64,000 nucleotides of DNA. It comes from an uncultured virus (IMG/VR IMGVR_UViG_3300030098_003452). Its lineage: Duplodnaviria; Heunggongvirae; Uroviricota; Caudoviricetes; Crassvirales. The notes below the pieces were generated by a model. That model was given only the letters and a program-made list of their open reading frames with translations, ran no database searches and was not told the origin of the DNA. Positions 939-50,005 of this stretch are shown piece after piece (position 1 is the stretch's first letter; every line of letters begins with the position of its first letter). Made by a program: the position numbers and the translations under genes. Location: the IMG/VR virus record IMGVR_UViG_3300030098_003452, positions 1-64,000 of that record; one strand, written 5' to 3'.

Positions 939-1637
939 ATGGCGTTTAAAATGAAAGGATCTCCGTATACAACGGGGACACATGCAACGAAAAAGACAAT
1001 GGCTTATCAAGCTAGTCCTCTACCACAATACAACCGATTAGAGGGATATACTTATGGAGACGAGGTTATAGATCCTGATTATAAAGGTCCTGGAACTGGA
1101 TATATGATAGAAGGTACTAAACCTAGTGCCTCAAGTGGTGAGAAGATGTCTAATCAAGCTTGGGAAGAATATTTAGCTAACGAAACATCAGAGCAAAAGA
1201 GAAAAAGATTAGAAAGAGAAAGTAGAAAAAAATTGACTGATGTTCAACGTAGAGTTGAAATGGATACAGAACCAATAACACTAGACCCTATTAAAATCGG
1301 TATGGATTTAGAAACTCCAACGCCAGGGAATTTAGAACAGATTGATTTTCCTTCAAGTAGTACCTCTACTGAAACTAAAATACCTAAAAAGAAAAAGACA
1401 ACTAAAAAACGAAGAAGACGAAAAACATTTAAGGAAATAGTAAATCCTCATGATTTACATCCTTGGGTGGGAAAAAATAGCAAATTTGGAATATTTGGAA
1501 AGTATGGAGGAAAAGATAGAAAAAAGGTATTTGGTGGAATAGGGAGAACTTTAAAGAAAATGAATCCAGCGAAATTATTTAAAAGTAGAGGTGGAAACTG
1601 CCTTGTAGACCCAAACGCAACTGTTGGTAGACGTTAA
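939..1637 (+). CDS. MAFKMKG-leader family protein with basic C-terminus
   Basis: N-terminus MAFKMKGSP...SPLPQ. Confidence 0.8.
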   Translation: MAFKMKGSPYTTGTHATKKTMAYQASPLPQYNRLEGYTYGDEVIDPDYKGPGTGYMIEGTKPSASSGEKMSNQAWEEYLANETSEQKRKRLERESRKKLTDVQRRVEMDTEPITLDPIKIGMDLETPTPGNLEQIDFPSSSTSTETKIPKKKKTTKKRRRRKTFKEIVNPHDLHPWVGKNSKFGIFGKYGGKDRKKVFGGIGRTLKKMNPAKLFKSRGGNCLVDPNATVGRR

Positions 1638-1651
1638 TAAAACATATAACT

Positions 1652-2125
1652 ATGACATTTAAAATGAAAGGGTTTCCTCAACATAACACGTCTGCTTTTA
1701 AACAACAGACACACAAGTATAATATAGAAGGAGAAAATATAAAAATAAAAACAAAAACACCTGATCAAGATCAAACCCTTATCGATGCATATAATAAGTT
1801 CCAAACAGCTAATCAGATTTATAATAAATTTGCTAGTGATGAAAGATTTGGGAAAGATTTAAATCAAGAAGAAATGGCACAACTACAAAAAGAAATAGCT
1901 TTAGCTGGCGAAGCGTACAACAATGCTAAAACTGATTTCTTTAACGTTACAGATTCTTTAAGCAATGTTTTAAATAAAAAAGGACCATTTCCACAGCTTT
2001 TTGGACCGCGTAAAAAAGGTATTATTAGAAAAATTAAAGATTGGTTTGGAAATAGAAGATATAGAAAAAATTTTAGAAAAGATGTTAAGGGATTTGCAGG
2101 TGGAAAATGGAAAAAAAGAAGGTAA
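1652..2125 (+). CDS. MAFKMKG-leader family protein
   Basis: N-terminus MTFKMKGFPQHNTSAFKQ. Confidence 0.8.
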   Translation: MTFKMKGFPQHNTSAFKQQTHKYNIEGENIKIKTKTPDQDQTLIDAYNKFQTANQIYNKFASDERFGKDLNQEEMAQLQKEIALAGEAYNNAKTDFFNVTDSLSNVLNKKGPFPQLFGPRKKGIIRKIKDWFGNRRYRKNFRKDVKGFAGGKWKKRR

Positions 2126-2382
2126 TGGCATTTAAATTAAAGAAAACCGATTTAAAGCCAAGTTCTAGAGTAAGTTTTGACTCAGAACATGGTTTTGCAG
2201 CTGGATCACCAGATGAAAACAACGATATAAACTACATAAATACACCAACTGGAGAAATAGATATGACCAACACACCACATCGACTAAAAGCAGTTGATGA
2301 ATATGGATTTGAAAAGACATTAGAGCCATTTAGTGGCGTACATATGTTCGCTGGTAAGCGTGTAAAAGAGATAAAATTATAA
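2125..2382 (+). CDS. MAFK-leader family protein (start revised to 2125)
   Basis: TAATG stop/start overlap with the upstream gene gives MAFKLKK. Confidence 0.7.
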   Translation: MAFKLKKTDLKPSSRVSFDSEHGFAAGSPDENNDINYINTPTGEIDMTNTPHRLKAVDEYGFEKTLEPFSGVHMFAGKRVKEIKL

Positions 2383-2417
2383 CAAAAACTAATTATTAAC
2401 CAAATAAACCAAAAATT

Positions 2418-2708
2418 ATGACTTATTTGTACTATAAGACCAGTACATTAACTGGCAACCAAAAACCGAATGAAAAAACTATAAAACAGTGGGAACATTT
2501 GTCTAAAAAGAAGAACTGGAGAATAACACAGTTACCAAATGGATTCTATCAGACAGAAGTTTCAGAGCCAGACACAGAAGAATGGCACGCTGTAACAAGA
2601 AGAGAGACAATAGAGGGTGCTGAAACCGCTATAAATGGTAGCATAGAGCACTTTAATAAAAAACTAGAGTCTATAAAAGGACCTAAAGTAATTAAAACAT
2701 TCAAATAA
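2418..2708 (+). CDS. hypothetical protein
   Basis: 96-aa ORF in operon context. Confidence 0.75.
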   Translation: MTYLYYKTSTLTGNQKPNEKTIKQWEHLSKKKNWRITQLPNGFYQTEVSEPDTEEWHAVTRRETIEGAETAINGSIEHFNKKLESIKGPKVIKTFK

Positions 2709-2714
2709 AACAAT

Positions 2715-3635
2715 ATGGCATTCAAAATGAAAGGTTCTCCGCATAAAACGGGGACTATGGAGGGAACTTCAGCACATAAATCAGCTTTAAAAGCTTATAA
2801 AACAATGAAAAAATACGGTAACGATGCCGTAAAGTTTGGTAGTACTGAAGGAAAATCAGTACCAAATAAAATGAAGTCTCCAATGGAGCAAATGTGTCCT
2901 CCTGGAGAAATTCCAGTAGATAAAGACGGTAATGTTTTACAGCAAAAATCTTCACCTAATAAGAAAATTGGTGAAAAAATTAAAAAAGGTGTTAAAAAAG
3001 CTGTTAAAGGAGTAAAAAAAGCCGCTGGAAAAGTTAAAGATTATTTAGAGACTCCAAGAGAAAAGCAGCAAGAAATGATGGAGAAAGGCGTTAAGAAGGT
3101 TGGTAAACATTTAAAAGATGTTGTTAAGCCTAAAGTAACTAAAACAGCAAAGAGTTCTATGTCACGTGTAGATCCAAGATCTGAAGTTATTGAATACTCT
3201 GGTAGCGCTACAACAAAAAAATCAAGGAAAAAACTTTTTGGAGGGGGCGTTGAAAAAGAAGTTACAACTTCTTATTCTCAAAGAGATGATGAGCCAAAAG
3301 GTGATAAAACTAAAACAACATCTAAGAAAACAGTAAAACGTAGATCTGGAGATGTTAAGAAAACTGTTGAGGTTTCAGATGATGGTACTAGAACTATCAC
3401 TAAATATGATAAAAAAGGTAATGTTAAAAAGGTTAAAACTAAAAAAGATAAACGTGGGCATTATCTACCTGGTGAAACAATAGGAACAAAAATCAAATCT
3501 AGAAAAGTTTCTAAATCAAGAAATGCTGAGGCGGTACGAGGATTAGGTGATATTAGTGATGAGAAAAAACAAGAGATATATGAAGAAACCGGAGCAATAC
3601 AGCAAAAAAAAGCGATGAAAAGCGCAAAATATTAA
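2715..3635 (+). CDS. MAFKMKG-leader family protein, very Lys-rich
   Basis: MAFKMKGSPHK..GTSAHK; internal SPMEQ and SPNKK. Confidence 0.8.
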   Translation: MAFKMKGSPHKTGTMEGTSAHKSALKAYKTMKKYGNDAVKFGSTEGKSVPNKMKSPMEQMCPPGEIPVDKDGNVLQQKSSPNKKIGEKIKKGVKKAVKGVKKAAGKVKDYLETPREKQQEMMEKGVKKVGKHLKDVVKPKVTKTAKSSMSRVDPRSEVIEYSGSATTKKSRKKLFGGGVEKEVTTSYSQRDDEPKGDKTKTTSKKTVKRRSGDVKKTVEVSDDGTRTITKYDKKGNVKKVKTKKDKRGHYLPGETIGTKIKSRKVSKSRNAEAVRGLGDISDEKKQEIYEETGAIQQKKAMKSAKY

Positions 3636-3647
3636 AAAACAAAGATT

Positions 3648-4106
3648 ATGGCATTTAAAATGAAAGGAAGTCCTATGAAGAGAAATTTTGGTGTAGGAGC
3701 TTCGTCACCAGCAAAACAATTATTAGAACCAAACTATGAATCGGAGATGTATAGTGAGAAAATTGGACCAGCTAATGAACCTGGAGTAACGCATAAGCTT
3801 AGATTAGACGCCGATAAAGTCCCTCTTGGCGACGAGTATGATATAGAGTATAAGAACAAACGTGATCTTTATGAAGAATCTAGAGATTACGAAAAAAATC
3901 TACCTATTGACGATAAAATTATTCCAGGATCTTGGAGTCATAGTGGTAATGTAGAGGAAACTAATAAACCTGTAGAGGAAACGAATAAACCTCTTCCAAA
4001 ACACTCAGTGGACGATCAAGGAAACCCAACCATGTTGACTTATACTCGGGAATATGATCCACGAACTAAAACTTGGAAAAAAGTACCTGTATATCAGCGG
4101 TACTAA
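3648..4106 (+). CDS. MAFKMKG-leader family protein
   Basis: MAFKMKGSPMKRNFGVGASSPAKQ; tandem VEETNKP duplication. Confidence 0.8.
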   Translation: MAFKMKGSPMKRNFGVGASSPAKQLLEPNYESEMYSEKIGPANEPGVTHKLRLDADKVPLGDEYDIEYKNKRDLYEESRDYEKNLPIDDKIIPGSWSHSGNVEETNKPVEETNKPLPKHSVDDQGNPTMLTYTREYDPRTKTWKKVPVYQRY

Positions 4107-4147
4107 ACTTGACTAAGTAGAAACACAATTAAATTAAATTAAATTAA

Positions 4148-5716: not shown

Positions 5717-5960
5717 TCATTACATAATTATAGAACAAATAAAAGATGAACCTAAAAAAGTCGCAGGTCTTATTTTAACAGAAGATACAGATACTGACAA
5801 TAGGTACTTAAAGGCTAAAGTGGTATCAATAGGGAATAATGTAGAAGGAATAAAAGAAGAAGACGTTATATATTATGATAAACACGCTGGACACGGAATC
5901 CAACATAAAGATAAATTTTACCAAGTCATTAAACAGATGGACGTGGTACTTATAGATTAG
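5703..5960 (+). CDS. groES: co-chaperonin GroES (Cpn10)
   Basis: 85 aa overlapping the groEL end; AGLIL mobile loop and KVVSIG..V..IKEED pattern. Confidence 0.9.
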   Translation: MKAVNHYIIIEQIKDEPKKVAGLILTEDTDTDNRYLKAKVVSIGNNVEGIKEEDVIYYDKHAGHGIQHKDKFYQVIKQMDVVLID

Positions 5961-6037
5961 ACTTAAACCAAAAACTAAAAACCTAAAACCCAAAACGTAA
6001 AATTAACCTAATTATTAACCTTAAAAAAATTACAAAA

Positions 6038-6457: not shown

Positions 6458-6463
6458 TCTTAA

Positions 6464-6904: not shown

Positions 6905-6905
6905 T

Positions 6906-7301
6906 ATGGCTTTTAAAATAAAAAAATCTTTAATACAGGGCAGCGCTGAACATAGAGGCATGTCTTTTAAAATGCAAAGAAAAGATTTAGCACCTGGTAT
7001 AGCTGGTGAAGCTAATAATGATGGCACTGTTTTTATAAGTAAAAATATTAAAAAAGGAAGTCCTGAAGAAGCAGAGGTAGGAGCTCACGAAGCTGATCAC
7101 ATGCTACGTATGAAAAAAGGAGAATTAGGATACTCAGACAACGATGTTACTTGGAAGGGTAAAAAATACCCTAGAAAAGATGGAAAAATATTATATCAAG
7201 GAACTTGGAGAGAAGAAGGTTGGGAGAAGTTTCCTTGGGAAAAACTAGCTTATAAAGCTGGAACACAAGCTAAAAAAGAAGCTGAAAAGAAAAATACATA
7301 A
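6906..7301 (+). CDS. HExxH zinc metallopeptidase-like protein with MAFK leader
   Basis: GIAGEANNDGTVFI...AHEADH zincin motif; N-terminus MAFKIKK...MSFKM. Confidence 0.7.
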   Translation: MAFKIKKSLIQGSAEHRGMSFKMQRKDLAPGIAGEANNDGTVFISKNIKKGSPEEAEVGAHEADHMLRMKKGELGYSDNDVTWKGKKYPRKDGKILYQGTWREEGWEKFPWEKLAYKAGTQAKKEAEKKNT

Positions 7302-7311
7302 AATTAAAAAA

Positions 7312-7716
7312 ATGGGAAGAAAATCAAAAGCAAAATTTAAAATGAAAGGTCATACTTTACCAGGTATTAACCAAAGATCTGAAACAGCAAATAACAAAGA
7401 AGGTAGATCTCCATCTTCAGCTTTTCAAATGGCAGAACCAGGAGACAGTCCAAATAAATTTCTTGGATTAGCAGCGATGGGAGCTGGAGCTGCTTTAGGT
7501 AGAACTAAATGGGGTAAAAGCGCTATAGGTAAAATAGGTGGAACACTTAAAAATATTGGTGGGAAATTTGGTGGTGTAGGTAGTAAACTATTTGGTGGCG
7601 GTGATAACGATGATGCTGCCGCTGGAAAAGAACTTTTAAAAGCAGAAGCTAAGGCAGAAATGGAAGAAGATACTGCAATGACAATGAAATTAAAAACAGG
7701 TAAAAAAAAACAATAG
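7312..7716 (+). CDS. FKMKG-leader family protein with Gly-rich amphipathic segment
   Basis: KFKMKG...SSAFQ...DSPNKFLGLAAMGAGAALG. Confidence 0.7.
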   Translation: MGRKSKAKFKMKGHTLPGINQRSETANNKEGRSPSSAFQMAEPGDSPNKFLGLAAMGAGAALGRTKWGKSAIGKIGGTLKNIGGKFGGVGSKLFGGGDNDDAAAGKELLKAEAKAEMEEDTAMTMKLKTGKKKQ

Positions 7717-13842: not shown

Positions 13843-16266
13843 ATGAGAGGTAATCATAATTTTCCAAGTCAAATAGTTAGTGATAAAGAAAAGTCAACTT
13901 ATGAATATGGGTTGAATGTCGCGAAAGCTATACAAGCAGAATGGTTTGATTCAGAAAGAAATGGAAATAACAGATATTCTAATCACTCTAACAATTTTCA
14001 CAGATTAAGATTATACGCTAGAGGAGAACAGTCAATACAGAAATATAAAGATGAATTATCAATTAATGGTGATTTGTCATATCTTAATTTAGATTGGAAA
14101 CCAGTTCCAATAATACCTAAGTTTGTAGATATAGTTGTAAATGGAATATCAGAACGACAATATTCTTTAAAAGCTTATTCTCAAGATCCTTATGGTGTTG
14201 AAAAAAGAACACAATATATGGAATCTATATTAGATGATATGGCCGCTAAAGAATTTGATGCTATGGCTAAAAATCTATTAAACATGGATTTTACTAAGAA
14301 TAAAGAAGAAGAGATACCCGAAACACAAGAAGAGCTTGATTTACACATGAGTATTAATTATAAACAAGCTGTTGAAATAGCAGAAGAACAAGCTTTAGAG
14401 GTTTTACTTGATGGTAATAAATATGATTTAAATAGAAGAAGAATAATTTATGACCTAACCGTTTTAGGTATAGGAGCAGCTAAAACATCTTTTAATACAG
14501 CTGAGGGTGTAACAATAGAATATGTTGATCCTGCTAACTTAGTGTATTCTTACACAGATTCGCCTTATTTTGAAGATATATATTACGTTGGTGAAGTTAA
14601 ATCATTACCTATAAATGAGGTTATTAAACAATTCCCAGATATAACAGATTCTGAACTAGAAGAAATATCAAAGAGTAATTACAAATATAATTATAGATAT
14701 GGTAATCGTAAAACAAATATTGATGAGGACAAAAACAAAATAGATATATTATATTTTAATTATAAAACATTTAAAAACGAAGTATATAAAGTAAAGCAAG
14801 TTGGTAGTGGCGCAGAAAAAATTATAGAAAAAGACGATGGTTTTAATCCACCTCAAGAAGATGTTAGATTTAGTAAGCTTAGTAGAAAAGTAGAATGTTT
14901 ATATGAAGGCGCTTTAGTTTTAGGAACTAATAAATTGCTAAAATGGAACATAGCAAAAAACATGATGCGACCTAAAAGTGATTTTACAAAAGTTAAAATG
15001 AACTATTCTATAGTTGCGCCTAGAATGTATGATGGTAGGATAGAGAGTTTAGTTAGTAGAATTACTGGTTTTGCTGACATGATACAATTAACACATTTAA
15101 AGCTTCAACAAGTAATGTCTAGAATGATTCCAGATGGAATTTATCTTGACGCGGATGGTTTAGCAGAAATAGATTTAGGTAATGGTACAAACTATAATCC
15201 ACAAGAAGCGTTAAATATGTTTTTTCAAACGGGTAGTATTATTGGTAGATCATATACTGCTGATGGTGATCAAAACGCTGGTAAAATACCTATTCAAGAA
15301 ATACAATCAGGAGGTGGTACTAAAATGCAAAGTTTAATTCAAACTTACAATTATTATCTTCAAATGATAAGAGATACAACCGGGTTAAACGAAGCTACAG
15401 ACGCTAGTACACCAGATCCTAAGTCTTTAGTTGGTATTCAAAAGTTGGCAGCCGCTAATTCTAATACAGCGACTAGACATATACTTCAAGGAGGCGCGTT
15501 TATAACACAGTCTATTGCTGAACAGTTGTCATTAAGAATATCAGATATTGTAGAATATTCACCAACTAGAAAAGCGTTTATACAAGCTATAGGTGCGCAC
15601 AACGTGGCTACGTTAGAAGAAATGTCACAATTACACTTATATGATTTTGGTATATTTTTAGAACTAGCACCTGATGAAGAAGAAAAACAGATATTAGAAA
15701 ACAATATACAAACAGCTCTTTCACAGCAAACTATAGATCTAGAAGACGTGATTGATTTAAGAGAGATTAAAAATATAAAATTAGCAAATCAACTTTTAAA
15801 AATACGTAGAAAGAAAAAGATGCAAAAAGATCAGCAAATGCAACAAGAGAATATGAAAGCACAAGCAGAGGCTAATGCTCAACAAACCCAAGCAGCTGCT
15901 CAAGCAGAGATGCAAAAAGGTCAAGCTGAGTTGCAAAACGAAATACAATTAGAAACTCAAAAAGGAGAAATTAAAAAAGGTACTCTGCACGCTGAAGCTG
16001 AAGTTAAGAAGGCATTAATGGATCATGAGTTTATGTTGAACATGCAAATGAAGGAAATGGAATTAAAAATGATTCAACAAAGAGAAAGTAAAAAAGAAGA
16101 TCGTAAAGATATGAGAGAAATGGGTCAAATGCAAAATAAATCTGAAATGGAAAATCAAAAATTAGAAAATGATTTAACTAAAGAGATAGCAAAAAAAGGC
16201 TTTGAATCTTCTGGTAACGATGTTATTGGAGGAGGAATGAGACTAGGCGCGTTTGAACCTAAATAA
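13843..16266 (+). CDS. portal protein
   Basis: 807 aa after terL; PIIPKFVDIVV motif; long Gln-rich C-terminal coiled coil (P22-like barrel). Confidence 0.85.
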   Translation: MRGNHNFPSQIVSDKEKSTYEYGLNVAKAIQAEWFDSERNGNNRYSNHSNNFHRLRLYARGEQSIQKYKDELSINGDLSYLNLDWKPVPIIPKFVDIVVNGISERQYSLKAYSQDPYGVEKRTQYMESILDDMAAKEFDAMAKNLLNMDFTKNKEEEIPETQEELDLHMSINYKQAVEIAEEQALEVLLDGNKYDLNRRRIIYDLTVLGIGAAKTSFNTAEGVTIEYVDPANLVYSYTDSPYFEDIYYVGEVKSLPINEVIKQFPDITDSELEEISKSNYKYNYRYGNRKTNIDEDKNKIDILYFNYKTFKNEVYKVKQVGSGAEKIIEKDDGFNPPQEDVRFSKLSRKVECLYEGALVLGTNKLLKWNIAKNMMRPKSDFTKVKMNYSIVAPRMYDGRIESLVSRITGFADMIQLTHLKLQQVMSRMIPDGIYLDADGLAEIDLGNGTNYNPQEALNMFFQTGSIIGRSYTADGDQNAGKIPIQEIQSGGGTKMQSLIQTYNYYLQMIRDTTGLNEATDASTPDPKSLVGIQKLAAANSNTATRHILQGGAFITQSIAEQLSLRISDIVEYSPTRKAFIQAIGAHNVATLEEMSQLHLYDFGIFLELAPDEEEKQILENNIQTALSQQTIDLEDVIDLREIKNIKLANQLLKIRRKKKMQKDQQMQQENMKAQAEANAQQTQAAAQAEMQKGQAELQNEIQLETQKGEIKKGTLHAEAEVKKALMDHEFMLNMQMKEMELKMIQQRESKKEDRKDMREMGQMQNKSEMENQKLENDLTKEIAKKGFESSGNDVIGGGMRLGAFEPK

Positions 16267-16297: not shown

Positions 16298-17497
16298 ATG
16301 GCAAAAAAAGAAAAAGAAAAAGTAGCCGAGCAGGCTCCTGAAAAACCACAAGTAGACGAAAAAGTCGAAAAGTTAAAGGTTAAAAAACCTAAAATGAAAA
16401 AATTTAAAACACCTTCTGATAATATAGCTAAAGTAGACCTTAAAGAGTTAGCTAAAAAAGCAGAGGATGTAGTTAAAATTAAAGAGGAACAAAAACCAAT
16501 AGAAGAAATAAAAGTTCCTGAAGAAGTTAAAGAAGAAAACAAAAAGCCAGTTGAAAAAACTGAACAAGTAGAGCAACCAATATTAGAAGAGGTTACAGAA
16601 GAAGCTAAAGAACAACCTACTAATCCAACTGTTCCTACAAAACAACAAATTGAAACTAAACCAGAATATCCAGAAAATATACAAAAACTTGTTAATTTTA
16701 TGGATGAAACTGGAGGTGATATAAATGATTACGTAAAGTTAAATAAAGATTATAGCGACATGGATAATCTTACTTTATTAAAAGAATATTATAAAACTAC
16801 AAAACCACATTTATCATCTGAAGAAGTTGATTTTTTAATGGAAGATCGTTTTTCTTATGATGATGAGGTTGATGAAGATAAAGATATTAAAAGAAAAAAA
16901 TTAGCGTTAAAAGAGCAAGTTGCCAGCGCTAAAAGCCATCTGGACGGGCTAAAGTCCAAGTACTATGAAGATATTAAAGCTGGAAGTAAACTTACACAAG
17001 ATCAACAAAAAGCTATTGATTTCTTTAATAGATATAACGAGGAGTCTAAAGCTACCGAGCAGGCTCAACAAAAAGCTAAAGACAAGTTTTTAAATAAAAC
17101 TAATGAAGTTTTTAACGATGAATTCAAGGGCTTTGAATACAAAGTTGGAGAAAAAACTTACAGGTTTAATGTTAAAGACCCTAACCAAACAAAAGAATCT
17201 CAAAGTGACATTAATAACTTTGTCAAAAAGTTTTTGAACAAAGAGAGTCAAATGGAAGATGCTAAAGGTTATCACAAAAGTCTTTTTACCGCTATGAATG
17301 CTGATGCTATAGCTAATCATTTTTATGAGCAAGGTAAAGCTGATGCTTTAAAAGATAGCGTTGCTAAATCTAAAAACATTGATATGAGTCCAAGACAATC
17401 TCATGAAGATATTGTTGGAAATTCAAGTTTTAAAGTTAGAGCTATAGAAGATGGTAGTAGAACGAACTCAACGTTTAAATTTAGAAAACGAAAATAA
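16298..17497 (+). CDS. capsid scaffolding protein
   Basis: Glu/Lys-rich disordered N-terminus, helical C-terminus, between portal and capsid. Confidence 0.7.
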   Translation: MAKKEKEKVAEQAPEKPQVDEKVEKLKVKKPKMKKFKTPSDNIAKVDLKELAKKAEDVVKIKEEQKPIEEIKVPEEVKEENKKPVEKTEQVEQPILEEVTEEAKEQPTNPTVPTKQQIETKPEYPENIQKLVNFMDETGGDINDYVKLNKDYSDMDNLTLLKEYYKTTKPHLSSEEVDFLMEDRFSYDDEVDEDKDIKRKKLALKEQVASAKSHLDGLKSKYYEDIKAGSKLTQDQQKAIDFFNRYNEESKATEQAQQKAKDKFLNKTNEVFNDEFKGFEYKVGEKTYRFNVKDPNQTKESQSDINNFVKKFLNKESQMEDAKGYHKSLFTAMNADAIANHFYEQGKADALKDSVAKSKNIDMSPRQSHEDIVGNSSFKVRAIEDGSRTNSTFKFRKRK

Positions 17498-17517: not shown

Positions 17518-19044
17518 ATGGCAATTACAAACGGAGATAATTTGAATTCAATACCTGCTGCACAAAGACAGGTGTTGTCTACAAATTATATTGATTTTAC
17601 ATCTAGCGATACGGCTGGATGGGCACAACAATATCTGCCTGACTTAATGGAAAAAGAAGCTGAAGTATTTGGTAACAGAACTATTTCTGGTTTCTTAGAG
17701 CAAGTTGGAGCAGAGGAGTCTATGACTTCAGACCAAGTAGTTTGGTCAGAACAAGGTAGATTACATCTATCTTATATAGCGACTATGTCAGATGTATCTA
17801 ATAACTATATTGATATTGTATCTGATATTGATGGTAACAGCTTGGCTGATGATGGAGCTGGTGGAAACTTTTATGTTGACAATTCATCTGCTAATCAGCA
17901 AGATCACGGTATTAGAGTAAATGATATGCTTTTAATAGCGTCTGCATCTGCTAATGTTACTACAAGAGTAATAGTATCTGCTATCGTAGCTGATGGTTCG
18001 GCTAATGCTGGTAGATTAACTGTACTACCTTACAATTCAGGAGCTGGTTCTTCTGCGATTGCATTATCTAACCTTGGATTTGTAACTACAGCTAGTGACC
18101 TTAGAGTATTAGTATATGGTTCTGAATACAAAAAAGGTGACAACGGTAGAACAGGTGCTGTTTCTCCAACGTTTAAGTCTTTTACTAATAAACCTATCAT
18201 TATGAAAGATAAGTATGAGATCTCAGGATCTGATGCATCAGCAATTGGTTGGGTTGAAGTTTCTGGTGAAGACGGACAAAACGGTTATATGTGGTACTTA
18301 AAAGCAGAAGGTGATACTCGTCAAAGATTTACTGATTACATGGAAATGTCTATGATTGAATCTATAAAAGGTGTTGCCGCTAACACTACTGCTGACACGG
18401 CTGTTTTACAGGCTAACTTTGGTACAGAAGGTTTATTTGCTGCTATCGAAGATAGAGGTAACACAACAACTGGTGTGACTGGTGTTAACGCTGCTACTGA
18501 TTTAGCTGAATTCGATGCGATTTTAGCTGAATTTGACAAACAAGGAGCTATTGAAGAAAACATGATGTTCGTAAATAGAGCTACTGCTTTAGCAATGGAT
18601 GATATGCTTGCTTCTATGAACTCTTATGGAGCTGGTGGTACTTCTTACGGTGTATTTGATAACGAAGAAGACATGGCGCTTAACTTAGGTTTCTCAGGAT
18701 TTAGAAGAGGTTCTTATGACTTTTATAAATCCGACTGGAAATATTTAAATGATTTCTCTACTAGAGGAGCTATCAACTCTGCTGACGACGTTAACGGCGT
18801 TAGAGGTGTTATAATCCCTGCTGGAGTATCTTCAGTATATGACCAAAACTTAGGTAAGAACTTAAAACGTCCTTTCTTACATGTTAGATATAGAGCTTCA
18901 CAAACAGACGACAGACGATTCAAAACTTGGACGACTGGTTCTGTTGGAGCAACTACTTCTGACTTAGATGCGATGGAAATCCACTATCTATCTGAAAGAT
19001 GTTTAGTAGTTCAAGGTGCTAACAACTTCATGATAATGAAGTAA
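17518..19044 (+). CDS. major capsid protein
   Basis: 508 aa after the scaffold, followed by a strong terminator. Confidence 0.85.
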   Translation: MAITNGDNLNSIPAAQRQVLSTNYIDFTSSDTAGWAQQYLPDLMEKEAEVFGNRTISGFLEQVGAEESMTSDQVVWSEQGRLHLSYIATMSDVSNNYIDIVSDIDGNSLADDGAGGNFYVDNSSANQQDHGIRVNDMLLIASASANVTTRVIVSAIVADGSANAGRLTVLPYNSGAGSSAIALSNLGFVTTASDLRVLVYGSEYKKGDNGRTGAVSPTFKSFTNKPIIMKDKYEISGSDASAIGWVEVSGEDGQNGYMWYLKAEGDTRQRFTDYMEMSMIESIKGVAANTTADTAVLQANFGTEGLFAAIEDRGNTTTGVTGVNAATDLAEFDAILAEFDKQGAIEENMMFVNRATALAMDDMLASMNSYGAGGTSYGVFDNEEDMALNLGFSGFRRGSYDFYKSDWKYLNDFSTRGAINSADDVNGVRGVIIPAGVSSVYDQNLGKNLKRPFLHVRYRASQTDDRRFKTWTTGSVGATTSDLDAMEIHYLSERCLVVQGANNFMIMK

Positions 19045-43622: not shown

Positions 43623-43634
43623 AAAACAAATTAA

Positions 43635-43994: not shown

Positions 43995-43995
43995 C

Positions 43996-44181
43996 ATGGT
44001 ATATAAAATGAGCGGTTGGAGTGGGTACCAAAACTCACCATTAGATAAAAAAGAAAAATTTAAACCACATATGATGTATAGCAAAACCGGCGAAAGTAAA
44101 ATAGCTAACACGTATGAAGAACATTTAAATTTGCAAGAAAAAGGTTGGGGTCATACAAAACCTAAAAAACAAAGTAAATGA
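43996..44181 (+). CDS. leader-family small protein (MVYKMSG...SPL)
   Basis: Start revised to ATG at 43996; variant leader. Confidence 0.6.
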   Translation: MVYKMSGWSGYQNSPLDKKEKFKPHMMYSKTGESKIANTYEEHLNLQEKGWGHTKPKKQSK

Positions 44182-46403
44182 AAAAAATATTTATATTATT
44201 ACTATTACCTATAATAACTTTCGCACAAAAAGAAGTTGTTATACATATCAAAACAGATAACTATCCTAGTGAGACAAAATGGACTTTATATAAAGACGCT
44301 TATCAAGGAAGCATAATAGCTTCAGTTCCTTATGGACATTATACTCAAAGTAACACTATGCATAGAGACACTGTTTATATGGCAGATAGTATTACTGATA
44401 TATCTTGGGTTATATTTGATAGTTATGGAGATGGAATTGTAAACGGTGAGTATTACGTAACTATATGTGGGGATACATTAATTAACTATCCTGTATCTAC
44501 GTTTACAACTGGATTAATACATAATAGAGTTGTGCCACAATGCATGCCCCAACCACCACCATCATCTGGATGTGTTCCAGCTATGGTAAATATTAATTTA
44601 GATCAATATCAAAGTGAAACAACTTGGGATATAAAAGATTCAACAGGTGCTATTATAGCAGCAGGAGGACCTTATACAAACGCTCCTGATTATCAACCAC
44701 AATTTGAACCAGTATGTTTACCCACAGGTAATCTAACTTTTACAATATACGATTCTTATGGAGACGGACTAGCTGGTAGCTTGTGGGGAGGGCAAGACGG
44801 GTCTTACTACCTGATACAATGTGGAGATACCTTAGTGCATGGTACCGTTGCTAACTTTGGGACAGATTCCACTCATACCTTTATATCAGACACCTGCGTT
44901 CCTCCACCACCAGTACCAGGATGTACAGATGAAGATTATGTAGAATATAATCCTTTAGCAACTGTAGATGACTCATCGTGTGTAACTTTAAAGATTTGGG
45001 GTTGTACTGATTCTACAATGTTTAATTATAATCCTATAGCTAACACAATGGATTATATAGATAGTTGTGATTATACACTTATATTACATGATCTTGTAGG
45101 AAATGGTTGGGTTGGTAGTAAATTAGAAATATATCAAGAAGACAAAGATACTAGCGTGTTTTTTATGACACAACCTAGTTTAAATCAACAGTTTTCTATA
45201 AACTTATATGCTCCTGAAGAAGTACAAGCTAAATTTTTTGTTTCTCAACAAGCTCAACACACGGCGTTAGAATGTGGTTTTACTTTAATAAACCCTTATG
45301 GTGATACTGTTATAAGTGTTGTTCCACCGTTTATAGTACCGTTTCAAACATATACAGGTACAACATACTGCGGAAACACATGTATAGAAATAATAGAAGG
45401 TTGTATGGATAGTTTGGCGTTTAATTACAATTCTTTAGCAAATACATCTGAAACTTGTTATTATAGTCCCGGATGTACGTCTCCTGCATATCTAGAGTAT
45501 CATATCGATACATCTAACGCAGTTTATTCGGATTTTAATATACAGGATAGTTGTCAAACTTTAGCTGTGTTTGGATGCACGGATTCAATTGCGTTTAATT
45601 ATGAGCCTGAAGCCAACGTAGATAATGGTGGGTGCGTTCCTGTTATATATGGGTGTATGGAAAGTCTTGCATTTAACTACAACCCATTAGCTAACACTCC
45701 TGATACATGTATAGCCTATCTATACGGGTGTACAGATCCAACTATGTTTAATTATGACTCATTAGCAAATGCTGACGATGGATCATGTGTACCATTTGTG
45801 TACGGTTGTACTGATTCTACTATGTTTAATTTTAATCCTTTGGCAAATGCAGAGTATACTCCTACCAATTGTACTCCTTATATTTATGGTTGTACCGATC
45901 CTTCTATGCTTAACTATAACCCACAAGCTAACACAGAAGATTTTAGCTGTATACCTTATATTTACGGTTGTACTGATAGTACTGCCCTTAACTATGATTC
46001 AACAGCTAATACTGATAATGGTTCGTGTGTGGCTATGGTTGAAGGATGCATGGATCAGTCTGCGTACAACTATGATATTACGGCTAATGTTAATGATTCT
46101 GCTTCTTGCTTATATAGTGCTAATTGTGTCACTGGTCCAGGTAATCCTTACTGGCTTAATGACCCTTGTTACGAATGGGTAATAGAAATAGATGAATATT
46201 GTTGTGAAAATGAATGGGATACAATCTGTCAAGCTACTTACGCTTACTGCGAGGGAACTTGGATAGGACCTTTACCAAAAAGATTTGATAAACAATTACT
46301 AATGGTTACTGATATACTTGGTAGACCAGCAAAACCAGGTAATAATAAAATATTGTTATTTATATATAACGATGGAACAGTAGAAAAAAAATATACGAGA
46401 TGA
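44178..46403 (+). CDS. secreted Cys-rich GCTD-repeat protein with T9SS-like C-terminal sorting domain
   Basis: Signal peptide, about 11 GC[TM]D..NY..AN..C repeats, C-terminal TDILGR...YNDGTVEKK. Confidence 0.8.
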   Translation: MKKIFILLLLPIITFAQKEVVIHIKTDNYPSETKWTLYKDAYQGSIIASVPYGHYTQSNTMHRDTVYMADSITDISWVIFDSYGDGIVNGEYYVTICGDTLINYPVSTFTTGLIHNRVVPQCMPQPPPSSGCVPAMVNINLDQYQSETTWDIKDSTGAIIAAGGPYTNAPDYQPQFEPVCLPTGNLTFTIYDSYGDGLAGSLWGGQDGSYYLIQCGDTLVHGTVANFGTDSTHTFISDTCVPPPPVPGCTDEDYVEYNPLATVDDSSCVTLKIWGCTDSTMFNYNPIANTMDYIDSCDYTLILHDLVGNGWVGSKLEIYQEDKDTSVFFMTQPSLNQQFSINLYAPEEVQAKFFVSQQAQHTALECGFTLINPYGDTVISVVPPFIVPFQTYTGTTYCGNTCIEIIEGCMDSLAFNYNSLANTSETCYYSPGCTSPAYLEYHIDTSNAVYSDFNIQDSCQTLAVFGCTDSIAFNYEPEANVDNGGCVPVIYGCMESLAFNYNPLANTPDTCIAYLYGCTDPTMFNYDSLANADDGSCVPFVYGCTDSTMFNFNPLANAEYTPTNCTPYIYGCTDPSMLNYNPQANTEDFSCIPYIYGCTDSTALNYDSTANTDNGSCVAMVEGCMDQSAYNYDITANVNDSASCLYSANCVTGPGNPYWLNDPCYEWVIEIDEYCCENEWDTICQATYAYCEGTWIGPLPKRFDKQLLMVTDILGRPAKPGNNKILLFIYNDGTVEKKYTR

Positions 46404-46648
46404 GAAATACACCATTAAAAGCATTTGCGTCACCATTAAAACATGATATGGAAAAAGAACATGCTCATTCGGAAGATGCTAGTAGAAGCTCGAGACCTTA
46501 TATAACAGTTGATGGAGAACACGGAAGCACTATGAATATTGAAAATGTTTCTGGACATTCTTCTACTCAAGGAACTTATAGTGAATTATACCGAAAATCT
46601 CGAGATAAGAAAATAAAAGAAATAAGAGCTAGTCAAAAGAAAAAATGA
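46400..46648 (+). CDS. small protein with SPLKH motif
   Basis: MRNTPLKAFASPLKH. Confidence 0.6.
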   Translation: MRNTPLKAFASPLKHDMEKEHAHSEDASRSSRPYITVDGEHGSTMNIENVSGHSSTQGTYSELYRKSRDKKIKEIRASQKKK

Positions 46649-46857
46649 AAAAATTATTACTAGTATTACTAATAGGTTTAACCTCTTGTATTGTACCACA
46701 ACATATTGAATCCGATAAGTGTTGTGATAAACACACCTATATTCCTACTTATTATCAACCTACAAGAGTTGTTATAATAAAGAAAGATAAACCAATATAT
46801 AAAAGAAATATAAAAGTTAAAATAAATAAACATAGAAAAACTATAAAAAGAAAATGA
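46645..46857 (+). CDS. putative lipoprotein
   Basis: MKKLLLVLLIGLTSC lipobox. Confidence 0.65.
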   Translation: MKKLLLVLLIGLTSCIVPQHIESDKCCDKHTYIPTYYQPTRVVIIKKDKPIYKRNIKVKINKHRKTIKRK

Positions 46858-47951: not shown

Positions 47952-48121
47952 TGAAAATTGGTACTAAAAGACAAGAAAGATTTAAAAAATCAAACACAGG
48001 TTATATACAAAAAAATAATCCATTTCCAGTGACTAGCTGTGGAAGAAGAAGAACGTTAATGATGACAAACAAACCTGTAAAATTATTTATGAAAAATAAA
48101 AATACGAATTATGACATTTAA
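47951..48121 (+). CDS. small basic hypothetical protein (56 aa, not in ORF track)
   Basis: Manual translation MKIGTKRQERFKKSNTGYIQKNNPFPVTSCGRRR...; TAATG coupling to the upstream gene. Confidence 0.5.
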   Translation: MKIGTKRQERFKKSNTGYIQKNNPFPVTSCGRRRTLMMTNKPVKLFMKNKNTNYDI

Positions 48122-48401
48122 AATGAAAGGTTCTCCACATAAAATGGGGGCAATAATAGGTACTTCTGCTTTTAAACAAGATAAAAACAAAACAGTAACA
48201 AAAAAAGAAAAAGAATATGCTACGGCAGGTATACCTGGAACTGTTTATGACGTAGATGGCAACAAAGTGTCTACAGATAATATGGACCACGGTAATTTAA
48301 CTGAGTGGAAAACTGGTGAAGATGGTAGAAAATATTTCACCGTTAAAGAAGACACAAAAAGATACGAGGCGGATACTAGATTTTATTTAAAATCTAAATA
48401 A
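48111..48401 (+). CDS. MAFKMKG-leader family protein
   Basis: MTFKMKGSPHKMGAIIGTSAFKQ. Confidence 0.8.
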   Translation: MTFKMKGSPHKMGAIIGTSAFKQDKNKTVTKKEKEYATAGIPGTVYDVDGNKVSTDNMDHGNLTEWKTGEDGRKYFTVKEDTKRYEADTRFYLKSK

Positions 48402-48406
48402 AGACC

Positions 48407-48775
48407 GTGTATACTTATAAAATTTCCCCATTAAAAGTANNNNNNNNNNACACTATTGATGCTGATATAGATTTAGGTTTTGATATTAAAGTGAAAAAAA
48501 GAATTAGGTTTATGGGGATAAATGCTCCAGAATCTAGAACTAGAGATTTAGAAGAAAAAGCTAAAGGATTAGCTGCTAAAGACAGGGTTAAAGCTTTGTT
48601 AGATGGTTGTGATAATATAACATTAAAATCACATGGTATAGGTAAGTTTGGAAGATGTTTAGGAGAAATATTTTTAGATAGAGTTGATGGTAAAGAATGT
48701 TTAACTTTAAGAAGTTTAAATGAATTATTAATTAGTGAGAGTCATGCAGTAGAATATCACGGGGGAAAAAGATAA
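48407..48775 (+). CDS. staphylococcal/micrococcal nuclease-like protein (spans an N gap)
   Basis: TIDADIDLGF...RIRFMGINAPE...GKFGRCLG SNase-like motifs. Confidence 0.8.
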   Translation: MYTYKISPLKVXXXXTIDADIDLGFDIKVKKRIRFMGINAPESRTRDLEEKAKGLAAKDRVKALLDGCDNITLKSHGIGKFGRCLGEIFLDRVDGKECLTLRSLNELLISESHAVEYHGGKR

Positions 48776-48778
48776 ATT

Positions 48779-49264
48779 ATGAAAATTAAAAACATGGCTT
48801 ATTGGAAAGCTAAAAATAAAACACCACTCCAACAATCAGCGAGTGATTTTGTTGTTGATACAGTTAAAAAAGAAGCGTTAAAATCAGGTGTTAAAAATCT
48901 AGCTGGACAAGTTTTAGGGAAAACAGGAGGAGAAATTGTAAAAAAGGTACTTCCTGGAGCAGGAATAATTGCTTCTTTACGTCAAATGTATAAAAGTGGC
49001 CAGGAGCATTCTGGAGGAAAATATGGTTATGAACCAAATCCTAATTATGATCCAAAAACTGGAGAAGGTGTACACAGTGAAGATGTATATACAGATAAAG
49101 GAGAATATGGAGGCACTGCTCAATGGAGAAAAACAAAACCAATAGGTTGGGAAGGTTGGTCAGATGAAAGAAAATATCCCCAAAAAGATATTCCTACTTA
49201 TCCTCTTTCTGAAGAAGATAAAAAGAAAGGTGATTTTTCAGGAAAATGGAGTTTACCAGAATAA
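48779..49264 (+). CDS. leader-family variant protein
   Basis: MKIKNMAYWKAKNKTPLQQ followed by an amphipathic segment. Confidence 0.65.
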   Translation: MKIKNMAYWKAKNKTPLQQSASDFVVDTVKKEALKSGVKNLAGQVLGKTGGEIVKKVLPGAGIIASLRQMYKSGQEHSGGKYGYEPNPNYDPKTGEGVHSEDVYTDKGEYGGTAQWRKTKPIGWEGWSDERKYPQKDIPTYPLSEEDKKKGDFSGKWSLPE

Positions 49265-49283
49265 AATTTAAAAAAAGAAAATT

Positions 49284-49457
49284 ATGATAAATTGGATAAA
49301 TGGTTTTAATACCACAAACAAAAAAGAAAAATATAAATTAGAATTACGAATTGGAACTTTTACAGTTTTAGAAATAAAAGCGTGTTTATTTTGTGATGAA
49401 AATTGCAAGGCTAAACGTTTTAGATTTATGATTTGTAATTTAGGATTAGAAATGTAA
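49284..49457 (+). CDS. small hypothetical protein (57 aa, not in ORF track)
   Basis: Manual translation MINWINGFNTTNKKEKYKLELRIGTFTVLEIKACLFCDENCKAKRFRFMICNLGLEM. Confidence 0.6.
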   Translation: MINWINGFNTTNKKEKYKLELRIGTFTVLEIKACLFCDENCKAKRFRFMICNLGLEM

Positions 49458-49468
49458 AAACAAAAATT

Positions 49469-50005
49469 ATGGCATTTAAGATGAGGGGCTTTCCCCAACA
49501 CCAAACAAAATCAACATTAAAGCAATATACAAATACGTCTTCCGCTTTTAAACAGGGGGTACAACAACCTCTGGGTGGAACTGATATGGATACTATACCT
49601 CAAAATCCAACAATGTTCAAATATCAAAATCCAGATGGTAGTATATCATGGCTTACTAAAGAACAGATAAAAGAAAGAGAACAAGAAAGAAAAAATAGAC
49701 AAGCAGTAAGTTCAAAAGAAGAAAGAACAGGTGATCCAAGTAAAGACAAATCAGCGACATATGCAGCAACCACAAAAGATATTGTAAACGAGGCTAGAAG
49801 AAATTTAGAAAAAGGTAAATCGGTTTCTCAAACAAGAGGAGTAGGAAATAAAGCAGGAAGAGGACTTAAAAATGTTTTGAAATTTGGAGCAAAAAGACTA
49901 CCTTGGGTTGGTGCTGGGCTCACGGTTAAGGATGTAATGGAAGGTAAAAGCCTTGGAAACGCCTTATTAGATAATTTCCTTTTTGGAGATCTGTGGAGAA
50001 AGTAA
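49469..50005 (+). CDS. MAFKMKG-leader family protein
   Basis: MAFKMRGFPQHQTKSTLKQYTNTSSAFKQ. Confidence 0.8.
   Translation: MAFKMRGFPQHQTKSTLKQYTNTSSAFKQGVQQPLGGTDMDTIPQNPTMFKYQNPDGSISWLTKEQIKEREQERKNRQAVSSKEERTGDPSKDKSATYAATTKDIVNEARRNLEKGKSVSQTRGVGNKAGRGLKNVLKFGAKRLPWVGAGLTVKDVMEGKSLGNALLDNFLFGDLWRK

Follow-up and report, generated by a model that had tools for sequence, protein, structure and literature searches.

In the part of the published account cited here, the internal proteins of T4 form a diverse set with only a capsid targeting sequence in common; the targeting peptide sends them into the scaffolding core, and once injected they serve as anti-restriction factors (PMC3012670). A second precedent is CpmB of SaPI1, which binds the capsid protein via the same C-terminal motif as the scaffold of the helper phage, as set out in the cited portion of its source (PMC5644958).

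The stretch analysed here (the window) comprises 64,000 of the 67,289 bases of the genome of an uncultured marine phage. It resembles T4 in that, as far as the same portion of the T4 account goes, IPI, IPII and IPIII carry a short N-terminal peptide on diverse, fast-evolving, small and often basic proteins at variable loci. The sequence of the motif differs, the phage is podovirus-like with a genome of ~67 kb whereas T4 represents the T4-like myoviruses, and both packaging and any cleavage here are predictions. Where T4 has the gp21-type serine prohead protease, this phage has a tagged HExxH protein, and when 30 window proteins were scanned against PHROGs, none in the structural block was named as a T4-type serine prohead protease. 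CpmB and the phage 80alpha scaffold, with its C-terminal RIIK helix-and-hook, provide, within the cited portion of that work, the likeness of a non-scaffold protein bearing the basic-hydrophobic terminal motif of the scaffold, as proposed for the leader. However, CpmB belongs to a satellite that hijacks its helper, uses a C-terminal motif and sets capsid size, while the leader is an N-terminal copy on many unrelated cargoes encoded by the phage's own genes. Terminal peptides also dock cargo or protease inside an HK97-fold shell in the case of encapsulin cargo-loading peptides, the C-terminal tail of the HK97-type prohead protease and engineered P22 scaffold-fusion cargo, with motifs and positions that differ from those of this clade. 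To our knowledge, none of these involves many natural cargo genes within one phage genome, and we know of no description for T4 of a tag that resembles the scaffold's own termini.

The leader motif in the genome

The leader word, M-A-F-K-M/L-K-G, is a short peptide at a protein terminus in which hydrophobic and basic residues alternate. A six-frame scan located M[AT]FK[MLI][KR][GK] at start codons 939, 1652, 2125, 2715, 3648, 6906, 48111 and 49469, and the word at residue 9 (MGRKSKAKFKMKG) of the gene at 7312, all of them positions at which the original prediction had placed it. The degenerate 20-mer ATGGCNTTYAARATGAARGG matched exactly three times against 0.00 expected (100 shuffles), while the looser pattern ATGRCNTTYAARNTNARR gave eight forward and no reverse matches in the whole 67,289-base genome, and no match when run backwards as a control. 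We found no published description of this motif family in the literature.

The first cluster encodes, on the + strand, proteins of 232 residues (939..1637, MAFKMKGSPY..., pI 9.9), 157 residues (1652..2125, MTFKMKGFPQHNTSAFKQ..., pI 10.1), 85 residues (2125..2382, MAFKLKK..., where an upstream ATG at 2107 would add six residues), 306 residues (2715..3635, MAFKMKGSPHKTGT..., 26% K+R), 152 residues (3648..4106, MAFKMKGSPMKRNFGVGASSPAKQ...), the 131-residue HExxH zincin-like protein (6906..7301, MAFKIKK...) and a protein of 134 residues with the word eight residues in (7312..7716, MGRKSKAKFKMKGHTLPG). The last of these also ends ..MKLKTGKKKQ, and its orthologues in other contigs start MAFKMKGHTLPG. 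The second cluster, likewise on the + strand, holds proteins of 96 residues (48111..48401, MTFKMKGSPHKMGAIIGTSAFKQ...) and 178 residues (49469..50005, MAFKMRGFPQHQTKSTLKQYTNTSSAFKQ...), together with a 61-residue protein with a degenerate leader (43996..44181, MVYKMSGWSGYQNSPLDKK). Of the three looser variants claimed originally, only that at 43996 is credible, because its cargo family (..KPHxMY..EEHLxLxxKG..) bears the canonical leader in contigs L016, L052 and L119. The two others on the + strand are doubtful, since the protein at 46400..46648 (MRNTPLKAFASPLKH) has no F-K word and that at 48779..49264 (MKIKNMAYWKAKNKTPLQQ) has it only in distorted form (MAYWKAK, from an inner Met).

The nine leader genes, of which eight start with the tag and one has the word after eight residues, are all on the late structural strand, and the two clusters (939-7716 and 43996-50005) bracket the terminase-portal-capsid-tail block on the + strand, as had been proposed. 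Leader genes account for 27/278 genes on the structural strand against 1/200 on the opposite strand (Fisher p = 4e-6); a motif equally common at non-late starts, which the original prediction had named as contrary evidence, is thus not what is seen. The word may also start slightly inside the N-terminus (MGKFKMKG, MSGFKMKG, MARKSKAKFKMKG), which fits a docking motif rather than an N-terminal processing signal.

We also considered Sec, Tat and lipoprotein signal peptides, whose marks are a basic n-region followed by a hydrophobic h-region of at least 10 residues, a twin-Arg motif or a lipobox Cys, and rejected them, as no hydrophobic stretch follows the leader. The GRAVY values of the 12 candidate leader proteins range from -0.68 to -1.42 and are mostly about -1. 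The true signal peptides of this window are unlike the leader, as in MKKIFILLLLPIITFAQ at 44178.

Selection on the peptide and the second motif

Among 142 distinct copies from IMG/VR, the third positions of Phe and Lys in the leader track the codon usage of the genome, and all four codons are used for Gly, in agreement with the synonymous variation noted originally. The exception is the Ala codon at position 2, which is skewed to GCA (71% versus 29% genome-wide). Selection on the leader therefore acts on the peptide.

A second motif, [ST][PA]x[KQ][QKN], was said to follow in most of the proteins and to mark a cleavage site. It is enriched, occurring within 45 residues in 38/139 distinct leader proteins against an expectation of 3.6 +/- 1.8 (maximum 10) from 200 composition-preserving shuffles, but this is only about a quarter of them. 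Its role as a cleavage site finds no support; the motif is also missing from the leader region of the peptidase. Some leader proteins repeat similar words many times, for example ..EAAMKMKKEAAMKLKKDSAMDMKK...

Distribution and cargo

The leader was found at no fewer than 138 loci in viral contigs. In 596 Gb of cellular genomes, the 35-bit pattern matched 74 times, with roughly 35 matches expected by arithmetic; 22 of the 74 fall inside a single host enzyme (..TSG-MAFKMKGRVGDSPIIGAG..), and none of the 74, across 185,579 species genomes, heads a small basic phage-like protein. As judged from these matches, the tag is confined to phages and does not serve as a leader in cellular genomes. Among viral contigs of at least 24 kb that bear the tag, 32/34 encode a portal 54-80% identical to that of the window, which indicates that the tag marks one large uncultured phage clade. 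The phage is a podovirus-like relative of Pervagoviridae and Elemovirus, and we found no cultured phage that bears the leader.

The scan of related genomes for a leader joined to variable cargo, suggested at the outset, found this arrangement across the clade, with the cargo hypervariable and the leader kept. The cargo proteins are small and basic (median pI 9.7), and 86 of them fall into 58 BLAST clusters, 51 of which are singletons. Beyond the motif the sequences are indeed unrelated: past residues 20-50 nothing aligns, either between the proteins or with those at orthologous positions in five complete relatives. Even in the closest relative, whose portal has 80% identity, the likeness of the cargo is limited to the first 18-50 residues, whereas an untagged neighbour gene (g2418) is conserved at 54-88%. 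In two genomes, G001 and G002, no more than 1-2 genes are tagged, and the cargo function is therefore dispensable.

Termini of the putative scaffold carry the word

A putative scaffolding protein of 399 residues (16298..17497, + strand) is encoded between the portal protein (13843..16266, + strand), which is the clade marker, and the major capsid protein (phrog_13704; 17518..19044, + strand). This protein is taken as the scaffold on its gene position, its predicted helicity and a weak Atlas lead (0.79); it has no family match. Its tail, ..SSFKVRAIEDGSRTNSTFKFRKRK, contains the leader word twice (17429-17494), and its N-terminal region has ..VEKLKVKK. The predicted structure consists of a helical core (residues 126-359) with disordered ends that bear the words. 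FK[FMLIV][KR] in the called genes of six complete genomes is found almost only at leader N-termini and scaffold ends; the window has nine in leaders, two in the scaffold tail and none elsewhere.

Across the clade, the word lies in the last 30 residues of 19/19 scaffolds compared with ~1/19 shuffled tails, in the first 35 residues of 10/19 and in the middle of only 3/19. The 1,107 called genes of these 19 genomes include 27 that end with the word, and 18 of the 27 encode the scaffold. The divergent scaffold family, taken as 117 full-length-like representatives of clusters at 50% identity and scored by regular expression, has the word in the last 30 residues in 63/117 (54%; shuffles 3.0, maximum 8) and in the first 35 in 29/117 (25%; shuffles 1.3, maximum 5), where the shuffles control composition but not all biases, as Lys-rich tails favour such words. 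The middles of the family contain 26 words in 37,124 residues. In 16/117 representatives the word starts within residues 2-8 (MEFKVR, MENFKVK), against 1/93 genes of phi38:1 and 1/115 genes of Panino as controls. Cultured relatives without the tag show similar ends: gp30 of elemoA starts MFKMKLEGS and ends ..TKFKLV, while gp092 of phi38:1 starts MAFFKKQG and ends ..LRFKRKK. By this comparison, the ends of the putative scaffold carry the leader word, though with a partial likeness where the tag of the peptidase is concerned.

The HExxH zincin-like protein

The sole cargo constant across the clade is the HExxH protein (6906..7301), which is present and tagged in 17/19 clade genomes, the two misses being fragments 78-80% complete. 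Thirteen sequences share H61, E62, H65 and E112 without exception, and W111 is likewise invariant; E112 is the likely third zinc ligand. In public metagenomes, including Tara Oceans data, the protein forms 1,894 clusters at 90% identity; among the best 120 of these, HExxH is kept in 120/120 and the start M[AGS][FY]x[ML].. in 119. Lys at leader position 4 is often replaced by V, T, I or L in the HExxH proteins (MAFVMKG, MAFTMKG), which leaves M-A-F-x-M/L-x-G as the strictly conserved part, only partly like the scaffold word F-K-hydrophobic-K.

An AlphaFold model of the protein has a pLDDT of 86, falling to 39 for residues 1-10, and does not dock its own N-terminus on the active site. Relationships to known folds all lie in the grey zone: the best Foldseek E-value was 0.23, VIA fold matches were to PprI (Z 6.5, 87 residues aligned), BepA (5.0), SPRTN (4.9), abylysin (4.3) and selecase (4.1), and the best profile match among PDB sequences was selecase MJ1213 (E 0.33). 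No Pfam family reached the cut-off, with DUF6782, M78 and M76 alone appearing below threshold. The minimal zincins or gluzincins (selecase, abylysin) and the M78 PprI/IrrE peptidases share with this protein a length of ~105-130 residues, HExxH with a downstream Glu, and, in the predicted model, a core of beta-sheet and active-site helix; the MAF-x-M-x-G N-terminal tag is peculiar to the phage clade. The peptidase is absent from phi38:1, Panino and the first 50 kb of elemoA and MW202828. Leaderless homologues of the domain lie in non-structural regions of jumbo phages, for example XacN1 ORF071, and the enzyme thus need not be a head protease.

Proposed role of the leader

The tag matches the ends of the phage's own scaffold, so it probably loads the tagged proteins into the head. 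Specifically, we propose that the tag mimics a scaffold terminus and would load cargo and peptidase into the procapsid in the way of the T4 internal proteins, a reading to which we assign a probability of about 0.5. The word would dock on a site inside the assembling procapsid, for which the major capsid protein is a candidate receptor and the portal an alternative candidate, and proteins that start with it would be co-assembled into the head through mimicry of the scaffold terminus. One passenger would be the conserved small HExxH zincin-like peptidase, entering the procapsid alongside its substrates, which may be the scaffold, the tagged proteins or both. The other would be a set of 1-9 quickly changing proteins, small, basic and mostly disordered, which may end up beside the DNA and would probably enter the host with it, like the T4 internal proteins. 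Binding in the capsid interior, packaging, any cleavage and ejection are thus predicted steps. The capsid routing first suggested has gained circumstantial support from the word on the scaffold ends, the late strand, the basic hypervariable cargo and the always-tagged HExxH protein. Weighing against it are the partial likeness of the peptidase tag to the scaffold word, the word's occurrence in only 54% of divergent scaffold tails and 25% of heads, the ease with which Lys-rich tails form such words, the scaffold assignment without a family match, the few tagged genes of G001 and G002, and the leaderless HExxH homologues of jumbo phages.

The constancy of the peptidase also suits a different scheme, in which the tagged enzyme, acting in the cytoplasm with no capsid link, would recognise the leader or treat it as a pro-peptide, and would mature, or destroy on schedule, the small effectors and itself. 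No other tagged protein is constant, the peptidase occurs together with the leader (17/19 clade genomes; absent from phi38:1 and Panino), its HExxH and downstream Glu are invariant, its best fold matches are zincin peptidases with PprI first (Z 6.5, grey zone), and leader and second motif, both hydrophobic-then-Lys, could be one type of cleavage site. We nevertheless consider this scheme unlikely: the word occurs on scaffold termini in relatives without such a peptidase, which makes its primary role independent of the enzyme, G002 has no strictly tagged protein besides the peptidase, and the N-terminus is undocked from the active site in the model (residues 1-10 pLDDT 39). Similarly improbable is a short linear motif for a host factor (protease adaptor, ribosome or replisome), with the tagged proteins acting in host takeover or anti-defence inside the producing cell. 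Hypervariable, small, disordered cargo is typical of arms-race proteins, and a motif tolerated a few residues inside the N-terminus and repeated many times in some proteins would agree with it; yet 185,579 species genomes yielded no host protein with the leader, the genes sit on the late structural strand, and the word shared with scaffold termini points to a phage-encoded assembly partner.

An expression device, giving good initiation in the Shine-Dalgarno-poor Bacteroidota, or a relic stump of a duplicated gene family, neither with any targeting, seems very unlikely. The skew of the position-2 Ala codon to GCA (71% versus 29%) and upstream regions that are A-rich, as for other genes, speak for it, but synonymous sites elsewhere in the leader are free to vary, the leader is missing from the capsid protein and from other late proteins made in abundance, there are 0-1 cases among 200 opposite-strand genes, and the word also stands at scaffold C-termini, where initiation is irrelevant. 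Moreover, the word is invariant while the proteins diverge beyond recognition in genomes with portals 54-80% identical.

Head loading by scaffold mimicry may be extended to a tentative history, in which a widespread, uncultured marine clade of Flavobacteriia-type podophages made a scaffold docking peptide into a portable head-loading tag for a co-packaged zinc protease and a changing arsenal of small basic proteins delivered with the DNA. Such a cargo-loading and maturation system, natural and modular, would be one not described for podoviruses and would offer a ready-made seven-residue packaging tag; it is less probable than head loading by itself. If head loading is correct, sequence alone would for the first time reveal a capsid-targeting system in phages other than the T4-like and giant ones, with its origin, in the scaffold's own termini, still visible. 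Dozens of ‘dark’ families of small proteins from an abundant group of marine phages would gain a role, the hypervariable cargo would become candidate injected counter-defence or DNA-condensing proteins, and a natural tag of very few residues would be at hand for putting foreign proteins into phage heads. Should head loading be wrong, the motif is still a strongly selected, clade-defining peptide. In further support of head loading, the record of cultured phi38:1 annotates as ‘structural protein’ both gp069 and gp080, two small, basic and disordered proteins whose genes lie upstream of the structural block.

Leader motif in the window and its conservation as a peptide

The leader, M[AT]FK[MLI][KR][GK], stands at the start of eight genes in the window (939, 1652, 2125, 2715, 3648, 6906, 48111 and 49469), as originally noted, and in a further gene, at 7312, its core word F-K-hydrophobic-K is located eight residues in from the start. 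The pattern gave eight matches against none for a reversed-pattern control, and an exact degenerate 20-mer occurs in three copies, with 0.00 expected by chance. Three looser variants had also been proposed, of which the one at 43996 is credible because the same cargo family has a canonical leader elsewhere, while those at 46400 and 48779 are doubtful. The claim that conservation lies at the peptide level is borne out by codon choice: among the matches listed (142 distinct copies), the Phe and Lys third positions follow genome codon usage, Gly is found in all four codons, and the Ala codon, skewed to GCA, is the sole skewed one. Selection acts on the leader as a peptide.

Within 45 residues of the leader, a second motif, [ST][PA]x[KQ][QKN], is present in 38 of 139 distinct proteins among the matches listed, compared with 3.6 ± 1.8 in shuffles. 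This motif had been suggested to mark a cleavage site, which the data neither favour nor oppose; from its composition (a small residue, Ala or Pro, a hydrophobic residue and Lys), we would sooner take S[PA]xKQ for another, weaker copy of the leader-type word. Leader-type words are repeated many times within some cargo proteins (e.g., ..EAAMKMKKEAAMKLKK..).

Distribution of the leader

The window comprises 64,000 of the 67,289 bases in the IMG/VR virus record, which is 100% complete by CheckV. Late genes occupy the + strand from ∼900 to 51,400 and encode GroEL/GroES, a holin, the large terminase, the portal, a 399-aa protein, the major capsid protein, tail and fibre proteins, a 3,522-aa giant protein and an endolysin, with replication genes on the - strand from ∼51,400 onward. 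The portal and capsid proteins share 36-50% identity with those of the cultured Flavobacteriia podophages Cellulophaga phi38:1 (Pervagoviridae), the Flavobacterium elemo phages and Maribacter Panino, and similarity to the uncultured record MW202828 is comparable; the phage collection held no closer record than these for the two proteins.

Scanning IMG/VR with the exact 20-mer gave at least 138 loci, with at least 148 in-frame matches. Among the matches listed, 32 of the 34 leader-bearing viral contigs of at least 24 kb encode a portal 54-80% identical to that of the window, and the other two are fragments, each with a single match that looks like chance. Leader genes were found neither in the whole genomes of phi38:1 and Panino nor in the first 50 kb of elemoA_7-9A and MW202828. 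The leader is thus a hallmark of one large uncultured clade, and the architecture of leader plus variable cargo, which was to be looked for among related phages, is present in this clade and was not found in the scanned sequence of these four relatives. It is also confined almost entirely to one strand: across six complete genomes, 27 of 278 structural-strand genes begin with it, versus 1 of 200 on the other strand (Fisher p = 4e-6), the lone exception being a loose match, which speaks against an initiation bias that would place it equally often at non-late starts.

The same 20-mer was run against one genome per species for 185,579 bacterial and archaeal species (596 Gb), giving 74 matches, about twice the chance estimate (∼35 for a 35-bit pattern). 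Twenty-two of these are internal to one conserved host enzyme (..TSG-MAFKMKGRVGDSPIIGAG..), and the remainder fall here and there in short or unrelated frames. In the 596 Gb, no match stands at the head of a phage-type protein that is small and basic. Hence the leader is not a host signal, nor does it reflect how Bacteroidota genes generally begin. A role as a host secretion or sorting signal was also rejected on the grounds that the leader has no hydrophobic core and that no cellular protein was found using it.

Variable cargo proteins

With a permissive pattern, 97 leader-type ORFs were collected from 19 clade genomes or contigs (1-10 per genome). Their median length is 122 aa and their median pI 9.7, with pI above 9 in 67, and 10 of the 12 window candidates combine a pI of 9.3-10.1 with a GRAVY near -1. 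Past residue 30, the 86 proteins of at least 60 aa fall into 58 BLAST clusters, 51 of them singletons. That the cargos are unrelated beyond the leader, as had been proposed, also holds against five complete relatives, where the window leader proteins align only over their first 18-50 residues, even in the closest genome (portal 80% identical); the adjoining gene at 2418, which has no tag, shows 54-88% conservation. Pfam and PHROGs scans of the 12 window candidates returned no family except phrog_16532 (function not annotated) for the 6906 protein, and among the matches listed, 138 IMG/VR leader proteins gave DUF6321 above the Pfam cut-off in five, one sub-threshold Eco57I, and no match in the other 132. 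The 7312 protein had no tblastn match in 50,697 phage records.

Tiny basic tagged peptides occur on one clade contig (G004:C1:51890-52176) and at three loci from the database scans (L052, L111 and L005). Motifs recurring among the tiny tagged cargos of the collected contigs are ..GLWDNIHAKRKRIKAGSGEKMRKPGSKGAPS.., ..CW.GY.R.PG...G..GSC.K.., DUF6321 and ..SDAQRKA[IV][HY]ASKAE... In the phi38:1 record, gp069 and gp080, small basic disordered proteins upstream of the structural block, are labelled structural; we take these labels to rest on virion mass spectrometry, reportedly that of Holmfeldt and colleagues in 2013.

The 6906 protein, the one constant cargo

A single tagged protein, encoded at 6906-7301 (+ strand), is constant among the cargos, and its family has invariant H61-E62-x-x-H65 and W111-E112. 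Its AlphaFold model (pLDDT 86) is confident save for the leader, residues 1-10. Fold searches gave grey-zone matches (top Foldseek E-value 0.23), mostly to zincin peptidases (PprI, Z 6.5; BepA, SPRTN, CapP, abylysin and selecase), and the top match of its sequence profile in the PDB was the minigluzincin selecase (E 0.33). From the predicted fold, we call it a zincin-like protein and putative peptidase. The family is single copy in 17 of the 19 clade genomes, always beginning M[AGP]FK[MLI], and the two genomes without it are fragments 78-80% complete. No homologue was found in phi38:1 or Panino (whole genomes) or in the first 50 kb of elemoA and MW202828, and the window protein had no tblastn match among 50,697 phage records; a more typical member, from locus L026, retrieved only distant leaderless homologues, from jumbo phages and others. 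At E ≤ 0.001 the family comprises 1,894 clusters in public protein data, each of them an unnamed protein from metagenomes. M[AGS][FY]x[ML]x[GNT..] is the start of 119 among the best 120; the fourth position is frequently V, T, I or L in these, which leaves M-A-F-x-M/L-x-G as the strictly kept part of the tag.

One leaderless HExxH homologue (..HETVHVVQ..LPWEYDAY..) is ORF071 of Xanthomonas phage XacN1 (L245:7842-8348), located in a non-structural, tRNA-rich region of this 385-kb jumbo phage. Weaker matches to the HExxH domain were seen in Xoo-sp13, the Melnitz phages, phiM12-type phages and pT24.

The ends of the putative scaffold carry the same word

The 399-aa protein (16298-17497, + strand) lies between the portal and capsid genes, and its sequence profile found no family in PDB or Pfam. 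Its predicted structure has a helical core (residues 126-359) with disordered ends, and the protein Atlas gave a weak "scaffolding protein" lead (0.79). Together with its position, these predictions point to a scaffold. The tail of the window protein reads ..SSFKVRAIEDGSRTNSTFKFRKRK, and the consensus of 19 clade members is ..GG[IL]KV[RK]VLGDxSxxFKFKIKNK. The word [FLIM]K[FMLIV][KR] is present within the last 30 residues in all 19 (∼1 of 19 for shuffled tails); 10 have it within the first 35 residues, and just 3 have it in the long middle. Within the window's called genes, FK[FMLIV][KR] is found nine times in leaders, twice in the putative scaffold tail and nowhere else, and of the 1,107 called genes of the 19 genomes, 27 have the word at the end of their product, 18 of these being the scaffold.

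Searching 1.84 billion representatives with the scaffold profile gave 1,221 family members at E ≤ 0.001, and the best 150 of these include 117 full-length-like sequences. In this wider set the word is present in the last 30 residues of 63 of 117 (shuffles 3.0, maximum 8) and in the first 35 of 29 of 117 (shuffles 1.3, maximum 5), whereas the middles, 37,124 residues in all, have only 26 words. It opens the protein in 16 of the 117 (e.g., MEFKVR.., MENFKVK.., MADFKLR..); the control figures are 1 of 93 for the genes of phi38:1 and 1 of 115 for those of Panino. Relatives without the tag have similar scaffold ends: the elemoA protein starts MFKMKLEGS and ends ..TKFKLV, that of phi38:1 starts MAFFKKQG and ends ..LRFKRKK, and that of MW202828 starts MEIKVRE and ends ..GLKIRSPKK.

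A second family, of 229-258 aa, has the same word at its extreme C-terminus (..DGKIKLKIK or ..NGKVKFKIK) in three clade contigs (G009:C1 51354, G013:C1 2670 and G027:C1 7923), and from this ending it may be a further user of the candidate docking site.

Proposed head loading by scaffold mimicry

Terminal peptides of scaffolding proteins are classical docking elements for the capsid protein. The 80alpha scaffold binds capsid protein through a C-terminal helix-and-hook with a RIIK motif, and the satellite protein CpmB copies this element and binds the same site (PMC5644958). In T4, a ten-residue N-terminal tag is described as sufficient to load diverse, fast-evolving internal proteins into the scaffolding core (PMC3012670). 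We propose that the clade gave a copy of its scaffold-terminus word to a putative small peptidase and to a varying assortment of small basic proteins, in each case at the N-terminus, and that the tagged proteins would therefore become part of the procapsid. There the basic cargo would be next to the DNA, probably entering the host together with it, and the tagged peptidase would be in a position to cleave the scaffold, the tags, or both. Judged from the sequences, this is the simplest account, and we put its probability at roughly one in two; shell binding, packaging, cutting and ejection are all steps that we infer from the word common to leader and scaffold. Three points count against mimicry, namely that the likeness of the words is partial, with Lys at position 4 variable in the peptidase tags, that the scaffold is recognised indirectly, and that only about half of the distant scaffold tails fit the pattern (among the best 150 of 1,221). 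A complex prediction of the capsid protein (27-sequence alignment) with residues 1-45 of a leader protein (125-sequence alignment) returned "no answer" (0.00 against a mark of 0.32) and counts neither way.

Other explanations of the leader fare less well. Were it a cytoplasmic tag for the peptidase, the word would not be expected on the scaffolds of phages that lack the peptidase, and because such scaffolds bear it, we regard this explanation as unlikely. The hypervariability of the cargo is what a host-binding motif on takeover proteins would produce, but neither the link to the scaffold nor the late-strand position fits such a role, which seems rather improbable. The C-terminal copies of the word on scaffolds and the freely varying synonymous sites both speak against an expression device or relic, as do other abundant late proteins without the leader, making this a very improbable origin.

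The principle behind scaffold-word mimicry is already known, as a capsid targeting sequence in T4 and as mimicry of a scaffold terminus in 80alpha and CpmB. What is new is the motif itself, its lineage, its connection with the ends of the putative scaffold and the zincin-like protein that is both constant and tagged. Full-text search found no paper on the leader motif, and for capsid targeting only T4, P1, P22 and SPN3US, none tied to Flavobacteri terms; no Pfam or PHROG family was found for the motif. The accessible text of a phi38:1 methylation paper holds nothing on small virion proteins (PMC13288928).

Other features of the window

GroEL, GroES and another GroES-like protein of greater length (phrog_13932, immediately ahead of the terminase) are encoded on the + strand at 4148-5960 and 10812-11393. 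A link between the leader and these chaperonins was rejected, since tag-less relatives encode them too. The giant 3,522-aa late protein (32719-43287) has a Lys/Glu-rich end and two Cys-x-x-C-type clusters (..CAGISKNGKRCKKKV..CTVHEK.. and ..CKKIKSDGDRCKMK..CYYHD); like phi38:1 gp101, it is probably an internal protein that is ejected.

The second leader cluster also holds genes with Bacteroidota-type signal peptides (43635-47951), encoding a thioredoxin-like protein (43635), a 741-aa Cys-rich protein with repeats ..GCTD..FNYNP.AN..D.SC.. (44178), a small lipoprotein-like ORF (46645) and a possible outer-membrane protein of 365 aa (46854). Between two leader genes lies a staphylococcal-nuclease-like gene (48407-48775; Pfam SNase, E 4e-5) with a GTG start, whose opening, MYTYKISPLKV.., resembles a degenerate leader plus second motif; a masked N run (48440-48449) interrupts the stretch. 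The adjacent acidic paralogues at 50502-50918 and 50943-51362 have a common start, MATTTA.(L/I)TLTSTD.., and no family match. Directly upstream of the first leader gene, the divergent intergenic region contains a polypurine (G/A-rich) tract of ∼220 bases (499-715), followed by two copies of AGCTATTGTCACAC at ∼778 and ∼859, and the tract region may be an origin, promoter or terminal region.
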